A stretch of 64,000 bases of DNA from Paraphysomonas bandaiensis (GCA_965644295.1 CBFFRP010000423.1:124001-188000), one strand, 5' to 3'; shown: positions 4,923-58,950, numbered from the stretch's first letter. Translations and numbers: made by a program. The notes: a model not told the origin generated them from the sequence alone.

Positions 4923-5192
4923 ATGTATGTATGTACGTATGTATGTATGTAGGTAGGTAGGTAGGTAGGTAGGTAGGTATGTAGGAGGTAGGTAGGTAGG
5001 TAGGTAGGTAGGTATGTAGGTAGGTATATATGTAGGTATGTATGTATGTATGTATGTATGTATGTATGTATGTATGTATGTATGTATGTATGTATGTATG
5101 TATGTATGTATGTATGTATGTATGTATGTATGTATGTATGTATGTATGTATGTATGTATGTATGTATGTATGTATGTATGTATGTATGTATG
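4923..5192. repeat. Compound (TAGG)n/(TATG)n microsatellite, left part of retrotransposon target
   Basis: Read directly from the sequence; abuts the LTR at 5193. Confidence 0.98.
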
Positions 5193-5479
5193 CGCAGAGA
5201 AAAATACGGTACTCGGTCGAATGATACGGATGTTACTAATCAATAAACGGACGGAATACCCCCGTTGCTTTTACACAGTCTACACTACAGGTAGTCAAAG
5301 CAAGGTTCTCTTTATAGTTACTACAGAACTTCTCAGTAAGAGGAAATTATGCCTCTATTCTACAGCCGTACACTACACACTGCATAATATAACACCATAC
5401 ACCTCTATGTGCCCTATGCATATCTTATACAGTCACTTCAAGTACTAAACTGAAAAGAACATCCTCTCATTCCTCTACG
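5193..5479 (-). repeat. 3' LTR (287 bp)
   Basis: Identical by eye to 9891-10177; preceded on the element strand by a short purine run ACAGGGG-TG (putative PPT, 5480-5488). Confidence 0.95.
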
Positions 5480-5495
5480 CACCCCTGTGATGTGT

Positions 5496-8400
5496 CTACT
5501 CGTTCCCAACGATCAGACATATCAAATGACGAAACAATTTTCCTTGTAGGGGTTTAGTCAGCACATCAGCCAACATCTCTCCTGTAGGTAAGTACTGAAG
5601 CTTCACGTCTCCCCTATCATGGTGTTCTTCGACTAAAGCCTGCCTTACTCGTAGATATTTCGATCGGTATTTGCCTCCTCCTTTCGTTACGAGACTGAGA
5701 TTCGACAAGTTGTCCTGATAAATAACAGGTGGGTCAAGCGCATAGCCCTGCCCACACACAAACTCATGTAATCTCATTGCATTAGACATCATATCAGATA
5801 GGCCGACCAGCTCGGATTCGGTCGAGTCTTTCGTCACGATTCGTTGCTTAGTTGATCGGCATAGTACTGCGGCCCCTCCAAGCTGTACAACTACGCCTGT
5901 ATGCCCTTTTCCGTCATCGTGGGTGGCGAACGAAGCGTCGATGAAGCTTCTTACCCGCAGCTGCTCTCCAATCTTCAGCTGCAGATCTTGATCCCTTGTG
6001 TGCGCAAGGTATTTCAGCACTCGATTCAACTTCTGCTGATCTCCGATAGTCGGACCCTTCACTCTTGTTGTGAGGTACGCTATACTGAGCAGGATGTCTG
6101 GTCTAACTCTTATTGACAGATATAGCAATTTGGCCACCACTGAATGGAAATTGGCAGCCTCCTTCCTCCCCAATTTCTGTCCTGCGCCCTCTGCGAACAG
6201 TGATGATGTCGCTGGAGATGCTGCTCTGCCAGTGACCGCTGCCTCCTCCAGCACTCCGTCTAGGTAAGCCCTCATTGACACCACTGCCCTGTCATCTATC
6301 ATGCTCACATGCATACCTAAATACGACATGTCTTTGTCATCACAGTATTTTACCTCACCATATTGTTTCTTTAGTTGTTCCACCAACCACTCGGTGTCAC
6401 GCTTGTCTTGTGATAGCACTAGCAGATCGTCCACGTGTAGTGTTATAGTGCACTGCTTGCCGTTGACAGTCCTATTGAGAACACACTGATCCACCGGGTT
6501 AGCCACGAAACCAATGCTCTCCAGGTAAGCTCTTATCGTGTTGTACCAGAGCTTGGCGCTCTGCACGCATCCATATAACGCTTTGTCTAGGCGCACCAAT
6601 ATTTTGCCTCTTTCATCAACATACGGCTGGATTGTGGGGTCTAGTTTTCTGAGTATTGTGGCCAACATCGGCTCCAATTCCATTATTACCTCTTCGCCTG
6701 ACATCTCCGCATTGAGGTATGCACCACCTATATCAATTGTCGATACATGTCTCCCCTCTCTCGCTGCTATTGCTAGGCATGCAAATACTGACTGTATGTC
6801 CACAGTGGGTGACGACGTGTCTGGGTACAGTTTCCGATCCTGCTGTGCCCCGTTCGCAACCAGCCTCGCCTTGATTTTCTCGAACCTTCCGAGTCCGTCG
6901 TATTTCGTCTTCAAAAACATCAGCGATCGAATTGTTCGTTTGAGTTGAGTCTTTGATAGGTCACTCCGGTGTACTGGAACTATCGCCTTTTTTTCATGCA
7001 GCAGCTGCTTCAGCTCCCGTACTATCGCCAGGTAGGCTTCTTTGCCGTGTTCCTTTAAACCTTTGGTTACGCTTGTGTGATAGGCTCGATACATTACGGG
7101 CTTTCTTCTTGTGCCTGCCGCTATCCTTGCTCCGGCTGATGATGATGATAGTACTTCGCTTGTATTGTGTGTCATCCCTGCAGTTTCCACCCCTGTAATT
7201 TCCGGATTGTCGATGTCGTTGGGTGTTGCAGCGCCCGGTTCCTGTTCGCTCGGCCCATCAGCCCTGTCGCCATCATCGTCGACTAGTTCCGTGATTTTTG
7301 TTCTCTCTCTCTCTTCTGTGTGGGCGTGCACTTCGTCTGTGTCAACTGCTGTCATCTGCCCCTCCTCGTGAGGCTCCTTCGGCTTATCGATCTTGTCATT
7401 CTCAGCTGGTGGCGTGGTATCCTCGATCTCTCGACTCTCATTCTCACTGGTCGTGACAGGTGAGTGTGACTTGTTGTGCAATGACGATATTCTATTCACG
7501 GCGTCTATTACTATTTGCGTGGTCACCATCTTCACCCAGTTGGTCCTACTCACATATTTATTTGTTTTAAGGTTTAAAAATATCCAACTCCCGTTTGCGT
7601 TGCCGGATGGGTACAGCGCGATACATGGTTCTGTTCTGTCCTGCTCCGCGTTATTGCTCTTGACCTTCGGGTCATAGCATTCTACGTAGTCCCCGAAAGC
7701 CAGTGACAGTTCCTTTTTATAATTGGGTTTCCGACCAGTCAATGCCACTCGCGGTGCTACAGTTGTGCCATTGGTGGATGGCCTCCTCAAGTTCATGCGG
7801 CTGTTGGCGTATCTCACCAGGTCTCTGACGTTGGCATCTGGTAGGTTCCATGGTAGCCCTGAATGTACACTGCGTATTGTCTCTTTGAGTCGCCTAATCT
7901 TCGCGTCGATCTTGTCCAGGTGATCTCCAGCCCCTGCCACGTCAATCTCCATCCCTGTGATTTTGCCTCTCAGGGCCTTGAATCCCGGCTGAGGGTCCAG
8001 GTAGGTAACTGTCGGTATGTACCCGTAGCTTCTTAACAGGTTTACTTGTTCCTGTAGGGCCAATCCCAACTGATCCGTTGTTTCGTTTTCGAGTGAAGTA
8101 ACGATGGTTAGTCCCAATGGTTCCGCTAGTGTGAGCATGAACGATTGCTGTCTCACACTGAAGATGTCTGTGTACAGCCTTAGCTCCTTCTGCTGTTCTG
8201 CCTTCAGTTCCGGATCCGCGTGTTGCCGGCTGACTTTCTTATTCGTCTGCTTGCCTCTCACCGCTTCGAACGGTCTCCCATATATGTCAAAAGCTCTTCT
8301 GATATCACTCGGGGTAAGTCGCACCCCTGTAACGTTTCCGTCGCTCACTAGCTGCACAGCATCTCTCTCCGAGTCGAAGCCCGAGTTTCGGATCAGGTCT

Positions 8401-9878
8401 CGTGCTTCTCGCGCTCTCGCGACTTCTACTTTCGAATATTGGGCTTCGCGCTCCGCTACAGTCGTTACGTTGACTTTGGCCGTCGCCCAGTCGCGCATGT
8501 CGGCCACATACATCTTGTTCTTTCGATAGAAAGTCAAATCACTGTCAGGTAAGTGGACAGTGAAAGACTCTCCCTGCCTATATGTCACTTCATATATGTC
8601 TTCTACGTCCGCCTGACATAGCACGCTTGCCCTTAGCTCATCTGCTGTCTTACAGGTGAAGAATTGGTCTAGCTCGCCTACATTCGGTAGTTCCAGTGCG
8701 TGTCCCGATAATCCCGCCACGGTGCATCCTCTGGACGCCGGTCTTACATTGTTCAGTAGTCTTGGGTGTACTACCGAGACATCCGCCTGATTGTCGAGTA
8801 ATACTTCGTACCATTGGAATGGCTCGCTTCCTGACGTGAAGGCGTTCAACATTGTTGTCGTGCAGTGCTTGTTTTCTGATTCTTGGCTACTGTCTGGGCA
8901 TTCGTTCATTCTGTGGCCTGGCTCACCGCAGCCCCAACATATGAGCTGCCTTTTTTTCTGACCACGTTTGCTGTTGTGTGACTTCGTGTCGTTCCCTTGT
9001 TGCTGCTCTGGTGTATCATCGCTATCTGCTGATTTCTTGCCTTTTTCAGACTTCGATTTGCTCACGAATGCGGATCCGCCGCCTGCTCTCGTTGCTCTCT
9101 TCGGCGCTAGATATTTTGATGCTTTAGTATATATTTCATTCACATGCGTAGGTGCTGTTTGCGTTCCCATTGTTAGATCGTTGAGATAGCTAGTTTTGAA
9201 CTCGCCATATCTCGTGTCGTCCAGCCCTTCGAAGAAATCCATCGCGATGTCCTCTTCATTCATTTCCGCGTTGTTCATGTCTTTGTAGGCTTCTAATAGA
9301 TGATCAAACCTCTCCTTATAAGTAACTATACTCTCATATGCTCCCTGTTTAGCGTCTTTGTACCTTTTCCTCGCTTCTGCTCGTACCACTGTACTTACGC
9401 TGGAGTTAGTGGATACTTTGTGGGTTTGTTTGATAGCCAGCCATAGTAGTAGAGGATCCTTAGTCCAGTTCATGAGCTCGTATTCATCTAATAGCTTGAC
9501 TGCATCCATTGATTCGTGGCTCAGATGGTCTACCATGAATGAGTAGAATGCCGATCTATCGTTCCGCATCTTGTCTATTAATCTCCCTCTGGTCTTGGTC
9601 TTGTCCTTCATCAGGTCGAGGTTAACTCCATAGGGGTCGTCTTCCAAATCAAAATCCTCTGGGTTTATCGCATCGGGCTCATAATATTTGTCCAGCTCTA
9701 CTAGGCGTGCAAGATCACCGTACTTTTGCATGCCCACCACTACAAGCCTCTGTTTGAATGTGGCGAAGTTCGAGTTGGCACCGTATCTTAAAGTCGGTAC
9801 ATGTTCTGGTCTATCGGTGCTCGGTTTCTTGCCGAATCTTGCAAATCTTGTTGGCTTGTCGTTCGTTGTCTTCTTCAT
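5496..9878 (-). CDS. Gag-Pol polyprotein (Gag zinc knuckle, protease, integrase, RT, RNase H)
   Basis: CWGCGEPGHRMNEC (CX2CX4HX4C); LLDNQADVSV protease-like site; YTDIF/YLDPQ/KIDAK integrase; KARLVANG, IDIGGAYLNA, KALYGCVQSA, LHVDD (Copia RT); IDASFA, STESE, YQDN, ADVLTKPL (RNase H). No stops or frameshifts. Confidence 0.97.
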   Translation of the reverse strand: MKKTTNDKPTRFARFGKKPSTDRPEHVPTLRYGANSNFATFKQRLVVVGMQKYGDLARLVELDKYYEPDAINPEDFDLEDDPYGVNLDLMKDKTKTRGRLIDKMRNDRSAFYSFMVDHLSHESMDAVKLLDEYELMNWTKDPLLLWLAIKQTHKVSTNSSVSTVVRAEARKRYKDAKQGAYESIVTYKERFDHLLEAYKDMNNAEMNEEDIAMDFFEGLDDTRYGEFKTSYLNDLTMGTQTAPTHVNEIYTKASKYLAPKRATRAGGGSAFVSKSKSEKGKKSADSDDTPEQQQGNDTKSHNSKRGQKKRQLICWGCGEPGHRMNECPDSSQESENKHCTTTMLNAFTSGSEPFQWYEVLLDNQADVSVVHPRLLNNVRPASRGCTVAGLSGHALELPNVGELDQFFTCKTADELRASVLCQADVEDIYEVTYRQGESFTVHLPDSDLTFYRKNKMYVADMRDWATAKVNVTTVAEREAQYSKVEVARAREARDLIRNSGFDSERDAVQLVSDGNVTGVRLTPSDIRRAFDIYGRPFEAVRGKQTNKKVSRQHADPELKAEQQKELRLYTDIFSVRQQSFMLTLAEPLGLTIVTSLENETTDQLGLALQEQVNLLRSYGYIPTVTYLDPQPGFKALRGKITGMEIDVAGAGDHLDKIDAKIRRLKETIRSVHSGLPWNLPDANVRDLVRYANSRMNLRRPSTNGTTVAPRVALTGRKPNYKKELSLAFGDYVECYDPKVKSNNAEQDRTEPCIALYPSGNANGSWIFLNLKTNKYVSRTNWVKMVTTQIVIDAVNRISSLHNKSHSPVTTSENESREIEDTTPPAENDKIDKPKEPHEEGQMTAVDTDEVHAHTEERERTKITELVDDDGDRADGPSEQEPGAATPNDIDNPEITGVETAGMTHNTSEVLSSSSAGARIAAGTRRKPVMYRAYHTSVTKGLKEHGKEAYLAIVRELKQLLHEKKAIVPVHRSDLSKTQLKRTIRSLMFLKTKYDGLGRFEKIKARLVANGAQQDRKLYPDTSSPTVDIQSVFACLAIAAREGRHVSTIDIGGAYLNAEMSGEEVIMELEPMLATILRKLDPTIQPYVDERGKILVRLDKALYGCVQSAKLWYNTIRAYLESIGFVANPVDQCVLNRTVNGKQCTITLHVDDLLVLSQDKRDTEWLVEQLKKQYGEVKYCDDKDMSYLGMHVSMIDDRAVVSMRAYLDGVLEEAAVTGRAASPATSSLFAEGAGQKLGRKEAANFHSVVAKLLYLSIRVRPDILLSIAYLTTRVKGPTIGDQQKLNRVLKYLAHTRDQDLQLKIGEQLRVRSFIDASFATHDDGKGHTGVVVQLGGAAVLCRSTKQRIVTKDSTESELVGLSDMMSNAMRLHEFVCGQGYALDPPVIYQDNLSNLSLVTKGGGKYRSKYLRVRQALVEEHHDRGDVKLQYLPTGEMLADVLTKPLQGKLFRHLICLIVGNE

Positions 9879-9891
9879 AATTTCCTCTTAC
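9876..9891 (-). promoter_or_regulatory. Primer-binding-site position, complementary to the element's own LTR (10034-10049); overlaps the gag ATG
   Basis: + strand 9876-9891 cataatttcctcttac is the exact reverse complement of 10034-10049 gtaagaggaaattatg; no TGG tRNA-type PBS present. Confidence 0.75.
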
Positions 9892-10177
9892 GCAGAGAAA
9901 AATACGGTACTCGGTCGAATGATACGGATGTTACTAATCAATAAACGGACGGAATACCCCCGTTGCTTTTACACAGTCTACACTACAGGTAGTCAAAGCA
10001 AGGTTCTCTTTATAGTTACTACAGAACTTCTCAGTAAGAGGAAATTATGCCTCTATTCTACAGCCGTACACTACACACTGCATAATATAACACCATACAC
10101 CTCTATGTGCCCTATGCATATCTTATACAGTCACTTCAAGTACTAAACTGAAAAGAACATCCTCTCATTCCTCTACG
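9891..10177 (-). repeat. 5' LTR (287 bp)
   Basis: Identical to 5193-5479; element strand begins CGTAGAG and ends CTCTGCG (6/7 terminal inverted repeat). Confidence 0.95.
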
Positions 10178-10540
10178 GTATGTATGTATGTATGTATGTA
10201 TGTATGTATGTATGTATGTATGTATGTATGTATGTATGTAGGTATGTATGTATGTATGTATGTATGTATGTATGTATGTATGTATGTATGTATGTATGTA
10301 TGTATGTATGTATGTATGTATGTATGTATGTATGTATGTACGTATGTATGTATGTATGTATGTATGTATGTATGTATGTATGTATGTATGTATGTAGGTA
10401 TGTATGTATGTATGTATGTATGTATGTATGTATGTATGTATGTATGTATGTATGTATGTATGTATGTATGTATGTATGTATGTATGTATGTATGTATGTA
10501 TGTATGTATGTATGTATGTATGTATGTATGTATGTATGTA
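10178..10540. repeat. (TATG)n microsatellite, right part of retrotransposon target
   Basis: About 90 TATG units with rare TAGG/TACG variants. Confidence 0.98.
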
Positions 10541-10638
10541 TACATGTGTTTCTGTGTATATTATTGTTGTTATTTCCACATAATTATTTCCAACTCTCCT
10601 CTGCTTGCATATATTGTCTTGTATAACAAGGCACAATC

Positions 10639-42599: not shown

Positions 42600-42618
42600 G
42601 TTCTCACAGTTTTTAGAC

Positions 42619-42974
42619 ACAGTTCTCACAGCGAATGAGCTCAGCATTGGACGCCAGAGCGCCGAATAACTCTCCACTCTTCCAGGCTTCCGTTTTTATG
42701 CGCCTGGACAGTATCGTCTGCCCACTGGTGGATACTTATAGTTGGGTTTAGGTCGTAGACAAGAGATACAACTTTTCATAGTGCACTTGCACTTCCCGCA
42801 ACGCAAGTGCACTATGAAAAGTTGTATCTCTTGTCTACGACCTAAACCCAACTATAAGTATCCACCAGTGGGCAGACGATACTGTCCAGGCGCATAAAAA
42901 CGGAAGCCTGGAAGAGTGGAGAGTTATTCGGCGCTCTGGCGTCCAATGCTGAGCTCATTCGCTGTGAGAACTGT
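42619..42974. repeat. Perfect inverted repeat, 172-bp arms (42619-42790 / 42803-42974), 12-nt loop
   Basis: Arms read as exact reverse complements around the spacer acttcccgcaac. Confidence 0.95.
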
Positions 42975-43459
42975 ATCCAATGTCCTGGACTGGATATTTT
43001 TGTGCCTGAAAGTCGAGTTGGACGAAGAGTTATATGGAGGCATCCTGGCTTATCGAGGTGAATCATCTGACTGTTTGGCGCGGAAGTTGTTATCCATTGC
43101 TGTGTTGACAAGGCTGTTTCTGCGCCTTTGCAGGTGTGAATTGTGATATTGAGTCACGATGACATCACATGTGTGAAATTCATATTCACATACTCTCCAA
43201 TTCATAGAATATACATACTTCCTCGCACTTCACGTACTTCTTTGCTTTCATTGCTTGGATTGATATATCCTGTGTACGGTAGTACACAGTAGAGGGGTAC
43301 ACAGGTACAGTGGTATACAGTAGTGTACTGTATATTGTATATATATGGCATATATTCTCCAATTTTAGAGTTACCAGATCCAATGATGCCTAAATATAGG
43401 CATACTTCTGTCAAAAAAACACAGTATTTTATACTTTCATGCAGAGTTCAGTAAAAAAA

Positions 43460-54518: not shown

Positions 54519-57500
54519 CTAAATGATATCAAAAGGGGGCAGCACATGTCTTGTGGTGTCCCTCTGTGGTGGTTCATAATGATAGGTACCATCTATTCGA
54601 AGAAATTCCGGTCGGATGGTCCCCGCCTCTGATTCAAGTTATGTCAGCTAATGATGCTTACCATTAGAGGGTTCACCATGGGGTAGATCCGTGCTTGAAG
54701 CGTCTCTCTCAGGATGCGGAGAACTTACGCTCGGTGCGGTTTGATAAGGGTAGCAAGAATAAGGTGACATATGCATTCCATATCCAGCATATCCAGGTGG
54801 GAACCTGTATGATGGGGGCGGTGATGGCATGAGAGGAGAATATGGGGGGTAGTGGACGGTTGCAGGGTCGTTTGGGCACGGAAGTGGATGTGTTGCAGGC
54901 TCAGAACTACTAGATGCACTTTCGTTATGTGTACTATTCTACAAGCAAACGCGTTATGGAAATATATATGGCTATCAGTAAAATATCCATTGGAAGCTAA
55001 GCCAAACTCAAGATGCTCAATAAGTAAATTACCTGTGGGTCTCTCTTCTGGTCTAAGTAAGGTGGCATCGGCCAACCTCCTGGAAAGCCCATAAATGGCA
55101 CTCGGGGATCATATGGCACAGGAATAGGGATGAACATAGGCTGCGGTGCGTGTCCTCCGGCGGGCTTCCCCACACCTAGAGGTACGGACATGGGCATCCC
55201 GTATGGTAAACACATGTAGGGGTTAACCGGGGGAGAGTACTGAGTACTATCTGTTCCTGAATTGGCAGTTGGAATAGATGAATATAATGTTCCAGTTGGC
55301 AAACTCATGAACGGTGAATGAAAAATATTGGGGTATTCAGTTGGTGGGCCAGCGTGGGAACTGCCGTCGGGATTATTTGAAGAAGTCGATGAGTTGTCTT
55401 GCGTGGATTCATAACGCGGCTGCTTTTCAGGAGGTCCATTTTCGTCACTGTTAGATTTTCCCGGACGAGTGGTCAATGCAGCTGGAGGTTCTGTCTGTGA
55501 TCCTTGCAGATTGCATCTCATGATATCACTACGACGGTGTTCCTCTGATGGAAAATGACTTGAACTAAGATGTGTTGGAGGGGTTGCCACAGTTGATTGA
55601 TGCAGATTAAAGGGCACACCCATTTGATTTGTCTGACCCATCTGCATAGGGTGATAAGCCATAATATGTACTTGTGAACCTCCAGAATGCTCCGCGTTGT
55701 AAGGGTGACCAGCCAATGTTCCCCCACCCCGTAACGCGAGATGATGTTGATGAAGCCGTTCAATATTATCTAAACCCATACCAATTGACCCCACACGACG
55801 CATTTTACGCTCTAGACTATGCCATTGCACCTGATGTACACAGCAAATAAGAGTCCTCAATACCAAATGAATACATAATAAAACGAACTTAACAGAGGGA
55901 AGTTTCACCGTACAAGTATGCATGGCATGTATGCAATCGTTGAGTGAGCCTACCTTGAGAGAGGTTGGTGTGCGTCTCTTGTTTGGGTCCTTTACGGGCA
56001 ACATTTCCGCTATTTCCTATATATCAAGACAGATGACAAATAACATACTACCGATATTCCACTATACCTTCCATTTGTTGCCTAGACGAGCCTGCGCTCT
56101 CAGAATTATTACATCTTCGTCGAGAGTAAAAGGGGAATTGTCAATAGTGGGACTCAAATATTCATTCCAGCGTTCTCTACATTGTTTTGCACTACACGCG
56201 CATGTGAAACACATGCAATTTCTCATATCATGGACAGTATATACCTCCGGTTGTCGAACTTGGATGCAATCGAGGCCCAATCAATGTTTTGTCCCGCCGA
56301 TTCAACTAGATCTGTTAACTTTTTGTCTTCATCAGGATACCAGTATCCCTATAAATATGAATAGTAAGCATAAAAGTTTAAAATTAATGAGATCTATATA
56401 CTTTTTTAGGGGCGGATATACTTCTAGTCGCTTCACTCTTAGGAGCAGTAGAGGTGGAACTAGAACTTGCAGTGACACCTATACTGTCAGTGGAACTGTC
56501 TGTGGCACTAGTGTTCTGAGTCTATAAATAATTGCGTTACACATTATATAAAACAATACTAATACAAAACATATACCTCTTCACAATAAATAACAATATA
56601 TACTTATATTATATATACATGTATATATATTACATGTACCTCTATATAACAACACATGTAACATATGCATGTATACGTATCATTTGAACATATCTATATA
56701 ACAATATATGGTTATAACATATGCAGGTATATCTATTATATGCTCCTCTATATAGCAATTCATACATACATATATTACATATACATTAACTATAACATAT
56801 GTATGTATGTATGTATGTATGTATAATACATGTACCTCTATATAACAATATATGCACATATAACATACGCATGTATATGTATTACATACACCTCTAATAA
56901 CAATATATGCTGACATAACATATGCATGTATATATACTATATGTACCTCTATATAACAATATCTATAGATGACATATGCATGTATAGACACTACATTACC
57001 TCTATAAAACAATGCATACATACATATGCAGGAATAGATATTGCATGTATCTCTCTACATCAATGCATACATACAAACATACATATCAACATATGCATGA
57101 ATATGAATTACATGTACCTCACATACATATGTTATACCTCTATATAACAACATATACATAACTATCATATGTATGTATATGAATTACATGTATCTCTATA
57201 CAACAATGCATACATACATATGCCTGTATAGATATTACATGTATCTCTCTACAACAACAAAAACACCGATGAACATATGCATGTATATGAATTACATATA
57301 CCTCTATATAACAATACATTAACTATAATATATGTATGTATAGATACTACATGTACCTCTATATAGCAATATATGCTTACATGACATATGCATGGATATG
57401 AATTACATGTACCTCTCTATAACAACACATACATATCTAACATATGTATGCATACATACTACATGTGCCTCGATAACAATGCATACATACATATGCATGG

Positions 57501-58950
57501 ATATGAAATACATGTACCTCTATATAACAATATATGCACATCTATCATATGTATGAAACGATATTACATGTACCTCTCAATAACATTACATGCATACATA
57601 TGCATGGTTATGAATTACATGTACCTCTATATAACAATATATGCTTACATGACATATGCATGAATATGAATTACATGTACCTCTCTATAACAACACATAC
57701 ATATCTAACATATGTATGCATACATACTACATGTGCCTCGATAACAATGCATACATACATATGCATGGATATGAAATACATGTACCTCTCTATAACAACA
57801 CATACATATCTATCATATGTATGAATCGATATTACATGTACCTCTCAATAACATTACATGCATACATATGCATGGTTATGAATTACATGTGCCTCTATAT
57901 AACAATATATGCTTACATGACATATGCATGAATATGAATTACATGTACCTCTCTATAACAACACATACATATCTAACATATGTATGCATACATACTACAT
58001 GTGCCTCGATAACAATGCATACATACATATGCATGGATATGAAATACATGTACCTCTCTATAACAACACATACATATCTATCATATGTATGAATCGATAT
58101 TACATGTACCTCTCAGTAACATTACATGCATACATATGCATGGTTATGAATTACATGTACCTCTATATAACAATATATGCTTACATGACATATGCATGAA
58201 TATGAAATATGTGTACCTCTCTATAAAACAACGCATATATATCTAACATATGTATGTATAGTTATTACATGTGTCTTTAAATAGCATTGCATACATACCT
58301 ATACATGTATAGATACTACATGTATTAATGTATAACGGAATTACATGTACCTCTATATAACAATACACACATATCTAACATATGGATGTATATGAACAAC
58401 ACACATACATACATATGCATGTATATGAATTACATATATCTCTAAATAACAATACACATATACATACGTACATATGCATGGATATGAATTACATGTACCT
58501 CTATATAACAATACACACACATATGAACATATGCATGGATATGAATTACATGTACCTCTATAAACAACACATACATATCTAATATATGCATGTATATGAA
58601 TTACATGTATCTCTATAAAACAATGCATACTTGCATATGCATGAATATGAATTACATGTACCTCTATATAACAATACATACATACACACATACATACAAA
58701 CATACATATCTAACAGTACATTAAACTATATACAGTATAATACACTTACACTTAATATAGATTCATCACTTCTTTGTTCATTTCCTTTCTCTATCCCCAA
58801 TGTATCATATGATGGTTGATCTGTTGAAATTGGATTAGTTTTCTTCTCATCAATTGATAAATTCTCATGATATCCTTCTATTGATGTAATCTCTGATTTA
58901 TTTAAATGAATTGTATTTGAATTATTGATTTGATCTTTCTCATTATTCAT
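54519..58950 (-). CDS. R2R3 Myb-type transcription factor with Pro-rich C-terminus; first intron 58749-56522 is satellite-filled
   Basis: KGYWYPDEDKKL..DWASIASKFDNRR|SAKQCRERWNEYLSPTIDNSPFTLDEDVIILRAQARLGNKWK|EIAEMLP; exon phases match across introns; the 3' end is tentative. Confidence 0.8.
56600..58700. repeat. Intronic satellite: ~49-56-bp monomer with a 268-bp pentameric higher-order repeat (about 3 copies, ~57340-58200)
   Basis: Monomer core catatgcatggatatgaattacatgtacctctatataaca; near-identical spurious ORFs start at 57388, 57656 and 57924 (268-bp period). Confidence 0.92.

Follow-up and report, generated by a model that had tools for sequence, protein, structure and literature searches.

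The window analysed here, a stretch of 64,000 nucleotides from Paraphysomonas bandaiensis (GCA_965644295.1, CBFFRP010000423.1:124001-188000), contains an intact, young Ty1/Copia retrotransposon whose long terminal repeats (LTRs) have CG...CG ends. The element lies on the minus strand. Its 3' LTR (5193-5479) and its 5' LTR (9891-10177) are 287 bp long each and 100% identical, and the identity breaks off at once outside the repeats (G versus A on the left, C versus G on the right). Read along the element, the LTR has the sequence CGTAGAG...CTCTGCG and thus a terminal inverted repeat at six of seven positions; LTR borders, ends and inverted repeat are those given in an earlier note on this DNA. 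A single gag-pol open reading frame (ORF; 5496-9878, minus strand) encodes 1460 amino acids in Copia domain order, comprising a CCHC knuckle of the form CX2CX4HX4C (residues 314-328), a protease-like LD-N motif, an integrase region (residues 470-800; 7479-8471, minus strand), a reverse transcriptase (RT; RVT_2, residues 983-1218, HVDD) and an RNase H. RVT_2 was matched in Pfam with an E-value of 1e-26, beyond the curated cut-off. Since the integrase fold precedes RVT_2, the order is the gag-protease-integrase-RT-RNase H of Ty1/Copia. The LTR pair, the polypurine tract (PPT) and a target site duplication (TSD) within the 4-6 bp of this group (Pseudoviridae), with 5 bp as the best fit in a repeat, agree with this assignment. 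The identity of the LTRs, the intact ORF, the RVT_2 match and the position of the integrase fold therefore mark the element as a young and intact Ty1/Copia member. It lacks four traits that are typical of Copia without defining it, namely TG...CA ends, a DDE triad, an HHCC finger and a tRNA-type primer-binding site (PBS).

Next to the 3' LTR, a short PPT (AGGGG) is followed by a TG spacer of 2 nt (5480-5486, minus strand); the tract presumably primes the plus strand. The 15-nt PBS (9876-9890, minus strand) adjoins the 5' LTR, contains the ATG of the ORF and does not begin with TGG. The dinucleotides at the two inner junctions are GGGG-TG/CG on the PPT side and CG/TA on the PBS side (the slash marks the LTR border).

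Termini of the element, its family and its relatives

The flanks of the element carry GTATG on both sides (plus strand). The left copy (5188-5192) closes a (TATG)n array (4923-5192), and the right copy (10178-10182) opens a (GTAT)n array (10178-10541). With CG ends, the deletion of 5 bp rebuilds an unbroken TATG array, which is not achieved with 3, 4 or 6 bp. The 5-bp TSD proposed earlier is hence the best fit, with the length ambiguous inside the repeat, where every value of 1 modulo 4 is suitable. Owing to the 4-bp repeat target, some alternative end placements also yield matching flanks at this copy, and the left LTR alone reads TG...CA on the plus strand, its TG being borrowed from the target. 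As a single copy within such a repeat cannot settle the ends, independent insertions were examined by aligning the contigs of four public sequence runs to positions 5400-9970; the counts given here refer to the 24 loose ends listed out of 44. On the plus strand, CA lies directly inside the 3' LTR, so that TG...CA copies would follow the reference up to position 5481. Four contigs of run X3 and two of run X6, with mixed flanks, departed at 5479, just after CG, and did not continue through the inner CA at 5480-5481. At the other junction, departures were found at 9891 (two X6 contigs) and at 9890 (one X3 contig; flank ...ACA/CG, no TG). The CG...CG ends are almost certainly genuine for the family of the window element.

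A strict preference for microsatellite targets was not supported, because other insertions have non-repetitive flanks. The depth of X3 contigs over 5400-5705, covering the LTR and the adjoining 3' internal part, far exceeded that of the rest of the element, and variant X3 contigs were found near 5600-5690. The excess may stem from solo LTRs or short non-autonomous derivatives, although contig depth is not copy number. Sequence words of the element were present in marine runs, and public RNA runs contained part of it. One host gene gave named matches in ochrophytes, chrysophytes among them, and a marine host resembling chrysophytes is conjectured.

A scan of Joint Genome Institute (JGI) metagenomes delivered 78 relative loci, and a search of IMG/VR returned no relative. 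Quick trees were calculated from the RT-RNase H region, excluding integrase and LTRs; for the rooted trees, L009 (long branch) and near-duplicate rows were omitted, and five distant conventional Copia elements, from contigs assigned to bacterial metagenome-assembled genomes, served as outgroup. The rows labelled CG were placed on one side of a branch with a Shimodaira–Hasegawa-like approximate likelihood ratio (SH-aLRT) of 99 (23 CG versus 30 TG rows), which was obtained again with 18 CG rows. In the branch of the window element, the PPT junction followed the pattern purine-run-NG/CG in 25 of 32 rows and a clear TG start was found in none; seven of these 25 rows had not been labelled before tree building (L062 is ambiguous). 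Outside the branch, 27 of 34 rows started with TG, one with CG (L076) and one with AG (L059), and five could not be assigned. At the PBS junction, a CG end was found in 19 of 21 loci of the CG group and a CA end in 19 of 20 others. Ten loci distributed across the clade, including the window element, carry CG at both inner junctions. Real flanks place the start of L074 at CG and the end of L017, as well as that of the 3' copy of L004, likewise at CG; for L037 and L050 they place the start at the inner TG. With CG ends across family and clade, the integrase must join G-ended DNA, as had been proposed in the earlier note, which also foresaw correctly that LTR finders based on TG...CA would miss such elements or misplace their borders. 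The clade is common in marine and freshwater metagenomes, and its members will escape finders built on TG...CA ends or on a PBS of the tRNA type.

The protein identity between the two sister groups is approximately 35-45%. In the TG-ended relatives, the purine run is likewise followed by a TG spacer, with the register unchanged (GGGGTG/TGTTG compared with GGGGTG/CGTTG), and in both groups the 2-nt spacer may also be AG, CG or TA. This shared spacer, together with the flanks of L037 and L050, indicates that at each end the terminal base pair was substituted, A:T having become G:C, and that the register did not shift. The CG branch has likely arisen from TG...CA ancestors by point changes.

Several observations concern single members of the sample. 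In many elements of the CG clade (L001, L004, L006, L012, L013, L029, L065, L074 and others), the final stretch of the pol ORF covers both the PPT and the beginning of the 3' LTR, and its stop codon follows only after them. L061, with TG...CA ends, is the sister of L076, which combines a CG start with a CA end and a DDE triad; L076 and L059 are possible intermediates or single-copy mutations. Single copies within the CG clade (L004, L012, L009) show a CA or TG terminus, the expected product of CpG deamination, and one may speculate that CG ends are methylation targets which decay toward TG and CA. In the contigs of L003 and L049, copies of the element follow each other in tandem or overlap, an arrangement that is either genuine or due to loops in the assembly. 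L079-L090 are Copia contigs filed in bacterial metagenome-assembled genomes, likely as eukaryotic contamination; among them, L079 and L080/L082 are members with DDE triad and TG...CA ends that have a self-complementary PBS.

Integrase and primer-binding site

The integrase was recognised by neither Pfam nor PDB sequence searches, and its core also went unrecognised by Pfam in all 44 lineage members checked; it was recognised by the fold search alone. The predicted model (predicted local distance difference test, pLDDT, 92) had the prototype foamy virus (PFV) intasome as its top Foldseek match (E 1.8e-10), and a comparison with the Rous sarcoma virus (RSV) integrase (VIA) gave a Z-score of 17.7 and a root-mean-square deviation of 2.4 over 147 aligned residues. 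The region displays the retroviral integrase core fold without an HHCC zinc finger, as residues 471-565 include one His and no Cys; the finger is missing throughout the lineage. Asp571 and Asp628 are invariant. Together with these, Asp658 (codon 7905-7907, minus strand), which is located in the helix following the fifth core strand of the model, would form the triad of catalytic carboxylates. The sequence around position 658 corresponds to HVxxxER in the TG relatives and to PxQNGxxER, with Glu, in the distant conventional Copia outgroup; topology and motif register hence predict that residue 658 occupies the position held by the catalytic Glu in the D,DX35E motif. It is also the integrase column that discriminates best between the groups: 22 of 23 CG loci carry D and one carries N, and all 26 TG loci carry E. 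In the integrase search, D was found in 77 of 79 proteins, the two most distant ones having E. A regular-expression tally of the triad on 82 relative proteins (28 D, 13 E, 41 unassigned) was not used as evidence. The invariant residues R662 and K665 stand in what we take to be the register of the human immunodeficiency virus (HIV) lysines that contact the terminal CA. That the DDD enzyme works is implied by the identical LTRs, the intact ORF and several different insertion sites.

The PBS is complementary to the element's own LTR. LTR positions 129-144 (10034-10049, minus strand; second copy at 5336-5351) are the perfect complement, over 16 nt, of the PBS together with the G that closes the LTR, which is the Tf1-type arrangement; this candidate self-primer likely forms the 5' end of the transcript. 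Of the two inner dinucleotides described earlier, the TG on the PPT side is a spacer, while the TA on the PBS side is the start of the PBS itself and pairs with the LTR. The RNA of the window element was predicted to fold with the LTR-PBS helix (z -3.1) and an adjoining R-U5 helix. No tRNA genes were found within the 64-kb window.

Of the 50 loci that have a Gag start, 41 show a 10-28 nt inverted repeat placed at the end of the LTR; the duplex typically comprises 11-17 nt, and its sequence varies from family to family. In the controls, repeats of at least 10 nt appeared in 53 of 8200 shuffles and in 12 of 1640 cross-family pairs, with the qualification that the LTR-end anchor had itself been placed partly using the repeat. 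Pairing includes the last LTR base in 38 of the 41 loci (20 G:C, 17 A:T, 1 T:A) and the next-to-last in four; at the last base, CG families have a G:C pair and CA families an A:T pair. None of the 41 PBSs starts with TGG, and a pyrimidine-CA initiator-like motif was present at the 5' end of the primer in 30 loci. By analogy with Tf1, it is probable that the element primes its own reverse transcription. Since the last LTR base lies inside the primer duplex and covaries with the terminus, the arrangement suggests that the terminal base of U5 could be written from the primer.

Proposed mechanism and alternative readings

Taken together, the window element probably represents a Copia branch that changed from TG...CA ends by point mutations, is likely self-primed, and joins G-ended DNA by means of an integrase with a predicted third catalytic Asp. 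Transcription would start near LTR position 129-130. The first 15 nt or so, whose complementarity to the PBS and the last LTR base is seen in the sequence, would pair there and then be cleaved to serve as the primer, in the manner of Tf1. The plus strand would begin at the AGGGG tract, and the integrase likely removes the TG spacer of 2 nt, as it would in the TG-ended relatives. Both G-3' ends, which were observed, would then be joined to the target, likely with a 5-bp stagger, the TSD length that fits best in one copy. Four changes fall on the same branch, namely T to C at the first base of U3, A to G at the last base of U5, U to C at the paired base of the self-primer and Glu to Asp in the integrase. 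That Asp658 is part of an adaptation to the terminal guanine is the reading that we favour, though at slightly less than even odds. More tentatively, this widespread protist Copia clade may have remodelled the most conserved contact of LTR integration by exchanging its catalytic Glu for Asp to accept a terminal G, the new end being fixed through a self-primer that pairs with, and perhaps templates, the LTR terminus.

With respect to the ends, the window copy might be an end-mutated or mis-bounded TG...CA element disguised by its TATG target, the case that the earlier note had named as its refutation. The ambiguous TSD, the TG...CA reading of the left LTR and the 20 loose ends outside the list, among which a minority of other ends may occur, leave some room for it; the two LTRs are identical, though, six contigs of two runs depart at CG and ten loci have CG at both inner junctions, so that this explanation is hardly credible. 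The earlier note had further suggested that the ancestral TG/CA moved outward and became the dinucleotide now trimmed in 3' processing. TG does lie directly outside the U3 end, and an outer TG...CA reading is possible in L028 and L059. However, the TG-ended relatives have the same TG spacer followed by a TG of their own, at which the flanks of L037 and L050 begin, and the spacer is free to differ from TG in both groups. On the U5 side no outer CA exists; the TA, TT, TC or CT found there are paired bases of the PBS. A register shift is therefore very unlikely. Some results weigh against the explanation preferred here. One contig of run X1 departs at 9892, with the terminal C replaced or missing; L059 begins either with AG or at the outer TG, and the ends are AG in L003, TG in L012 and CA in one copy of L004. 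The CG branch nests with the TG elements L010 and L021 at a support of 94 only, and the approximately unbiased (AU) test does not reject the TG elements as one clade (p 0.46). With the root supported this weakly, the derived status of the CG ends depends on taking TG...CA and DDE as the general condition.

Doubts of another kind concern the link between Asp658 and the ends. Both the CG ends and Asp658 go back to one branch, which makes their correlation a single event, further integrase columns also split the groups (A507, E723, D652, Q609), and the equivalence of D658 to the catalytic Glu is a prediction from topology and motif register. The CG ends could thus be real and the exchange of Glu for Asp an unrelated passenger on the same branch, with the recognition of G coming from other residues or from relaxed specificity. 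We consider this a serious possibility that stays somewhat short of probable. It would accommodate L076, in which a CG start and a CA end coexist with Glu. In the PFV intasome, Glu coordinates metal B, and the available text of that study describes no base contact for it (PMC3395085). In that structure, however, the terminal nucleotide has its 3' oxygen bound by metal B as well (PMC3395085), so that a terminal G might plausibly be repositioned by a shorter side chain; moreover, the best separator of the two groups is a catalytic residue that is normally invariant. As to priming, nine of the 50 loci showed no inverted repeat in the automatic search (five had short upstream sequence, four a late Gag hit), which weighs against the preferred account. 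The LTR-PBS duplex might instead be structural, serving packaging, dimerisation or the control of translation at the ATG, with a tRNA fragment or another RNA as the primer. The overlap of PBS and start ATG in the window element would suit such a role. In most relatives, though, the helix lies upstream of the ATG; it always abuts the LTR end, and the PBS varies freely among families yet stays complementary to its own LTR, a pattern that priming by one fixed host tRNA would rule out. A purely structural duplex is accordingly unlikely, and self-priming remains the favoured explanation.

Two further features were noted elsewhere in the window. Positions 42613-42980 form a near-perfect palindrome with 178-bp arms (99% complementary) and a 12-nt spacer; a local inverted duplication may account for it, or else a fold-back in the assembly. 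An AT-rich satellite with nested periods of approximately 56, 161 and 268 bp extends from 56557 to 58725.

Comparison with known systems

CG...CG termini have been described for Troyka, a group defined by them, which has the Gypsy order RT-RH-IN (RH, RNase H; IN, integrase) and 3-bp TSDs (Kojima 2025, PMC12440569). The window element shares with Troyka the CG...CG termini, short LTRs (100-400 bp in Troyka) and an aquatic host (PMC12440569). It differs in the position of the integrase before the RT, in RVT_2 and in the likely 5-bp TSD, as well as in the knuckle (CX2CX8-10HX4C in Troyka, CX2CX4HX4C here), and the Troyka hosts are animals (PMC12440569). Of the Troyka features, the CG termini are thus found in the element, whereas the Gypsy order, the 3-bp TSD and the Troyka knuckle are not. 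Troyka is phylogenetically separate from Copia, and the shared CG ends are convergent.

Among Copia elements of stramenopile plankton, to which the window element also belongs, TG/CA was reported missing in CoDi3.2, CoDi4.2 and CoDi4.3 of diatoms (Maumus 2009, PMC2806351). Compared by description only, CoDi elements differ in that CG ends, a DDD triad and self-priming are not described for them in the available text of the papers on these lineages (PMC2806351; Llorens 2009, PMC2774666; Filloramo 2021, PMC8147415); nothing further on LTR ends appeared in the accessible portions of PMC2774666, PMC8147415 and PMC7017206. The DDD group includes a protein from Chaetoceros (P0037), and the protein searches for relatives returned no named CoDi sequence.

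Self-priming has precedents in two lineages. The PBS of Tf1, Tf2 and sushi is complementary to the 5' end of their own RNA, and the RNase H of Tf1 cuts after base 11 (PMC7175516); for the plant TAR Copia elements, self-priming was predicted (Neumann 2019, PMC6317226). As in Tf1 and TAR, the PBS of the window element complements its own LTR and lacks a TGG-type tRNA start (PMC7175516, PMC6317226). In contrast to Tf1, which belongs to Ty3/Gypsy, the element is a Copia member whose duplex includes the last LTR base and covaries with the terminus (PMC7175516); inclusion of this base also distinguishes it from the plant lineage TAR (PMC6317226). In the fungal GalEa Copia elements, a hairpin replaces the PBS (PMC5445492).

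Non-canonical ends are known from further elements, and the earlier statement that the terminal CA is almost invariant is overstated in view of Troyka, the Zam clade and the plant non-TGCA Copia elements. The LTRs of the Zam clade end AGT...ATT/ACT, without TG...CA (PMC3601003). The plant non-TGCA Copia elements have short LTRs as well (about 270-320 bp), but their first base is always T, the last base is A or T in lotus, and CG...CG is not among the motifs given in the available text (Ou and Jiang, 10.1101/137141; PMC9804982). Literature searches retrieved neither a CG-ended Copia nor a DDD LTR integrase, which is weak evidence because the same searches missed Troyka. CG ends and self-priming being known elsewhere, the new element of this system is a Copia clade which combines convergent CG...CG ends with a predicted DDD integrase and likely self-priming. 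Its CG...CG ends represent a second, independent origin beside Troyka, and this motif alone does not classify an element. Near-universal CA ends are usually ascribed to a constraint of the integrase, and natural switches with close controls are rare. Here, sister groups differ in the terminal pair and in one normally invariant catalytic residue, which offers a two-by-two contrast of Asp or Glu with CG or CA. If the proposed mechanism is true, the clade would provide a naturally occurring DDD LTR integrase whose end specificity has switched, for which the DDE/TG...CA sister families are ready controls.

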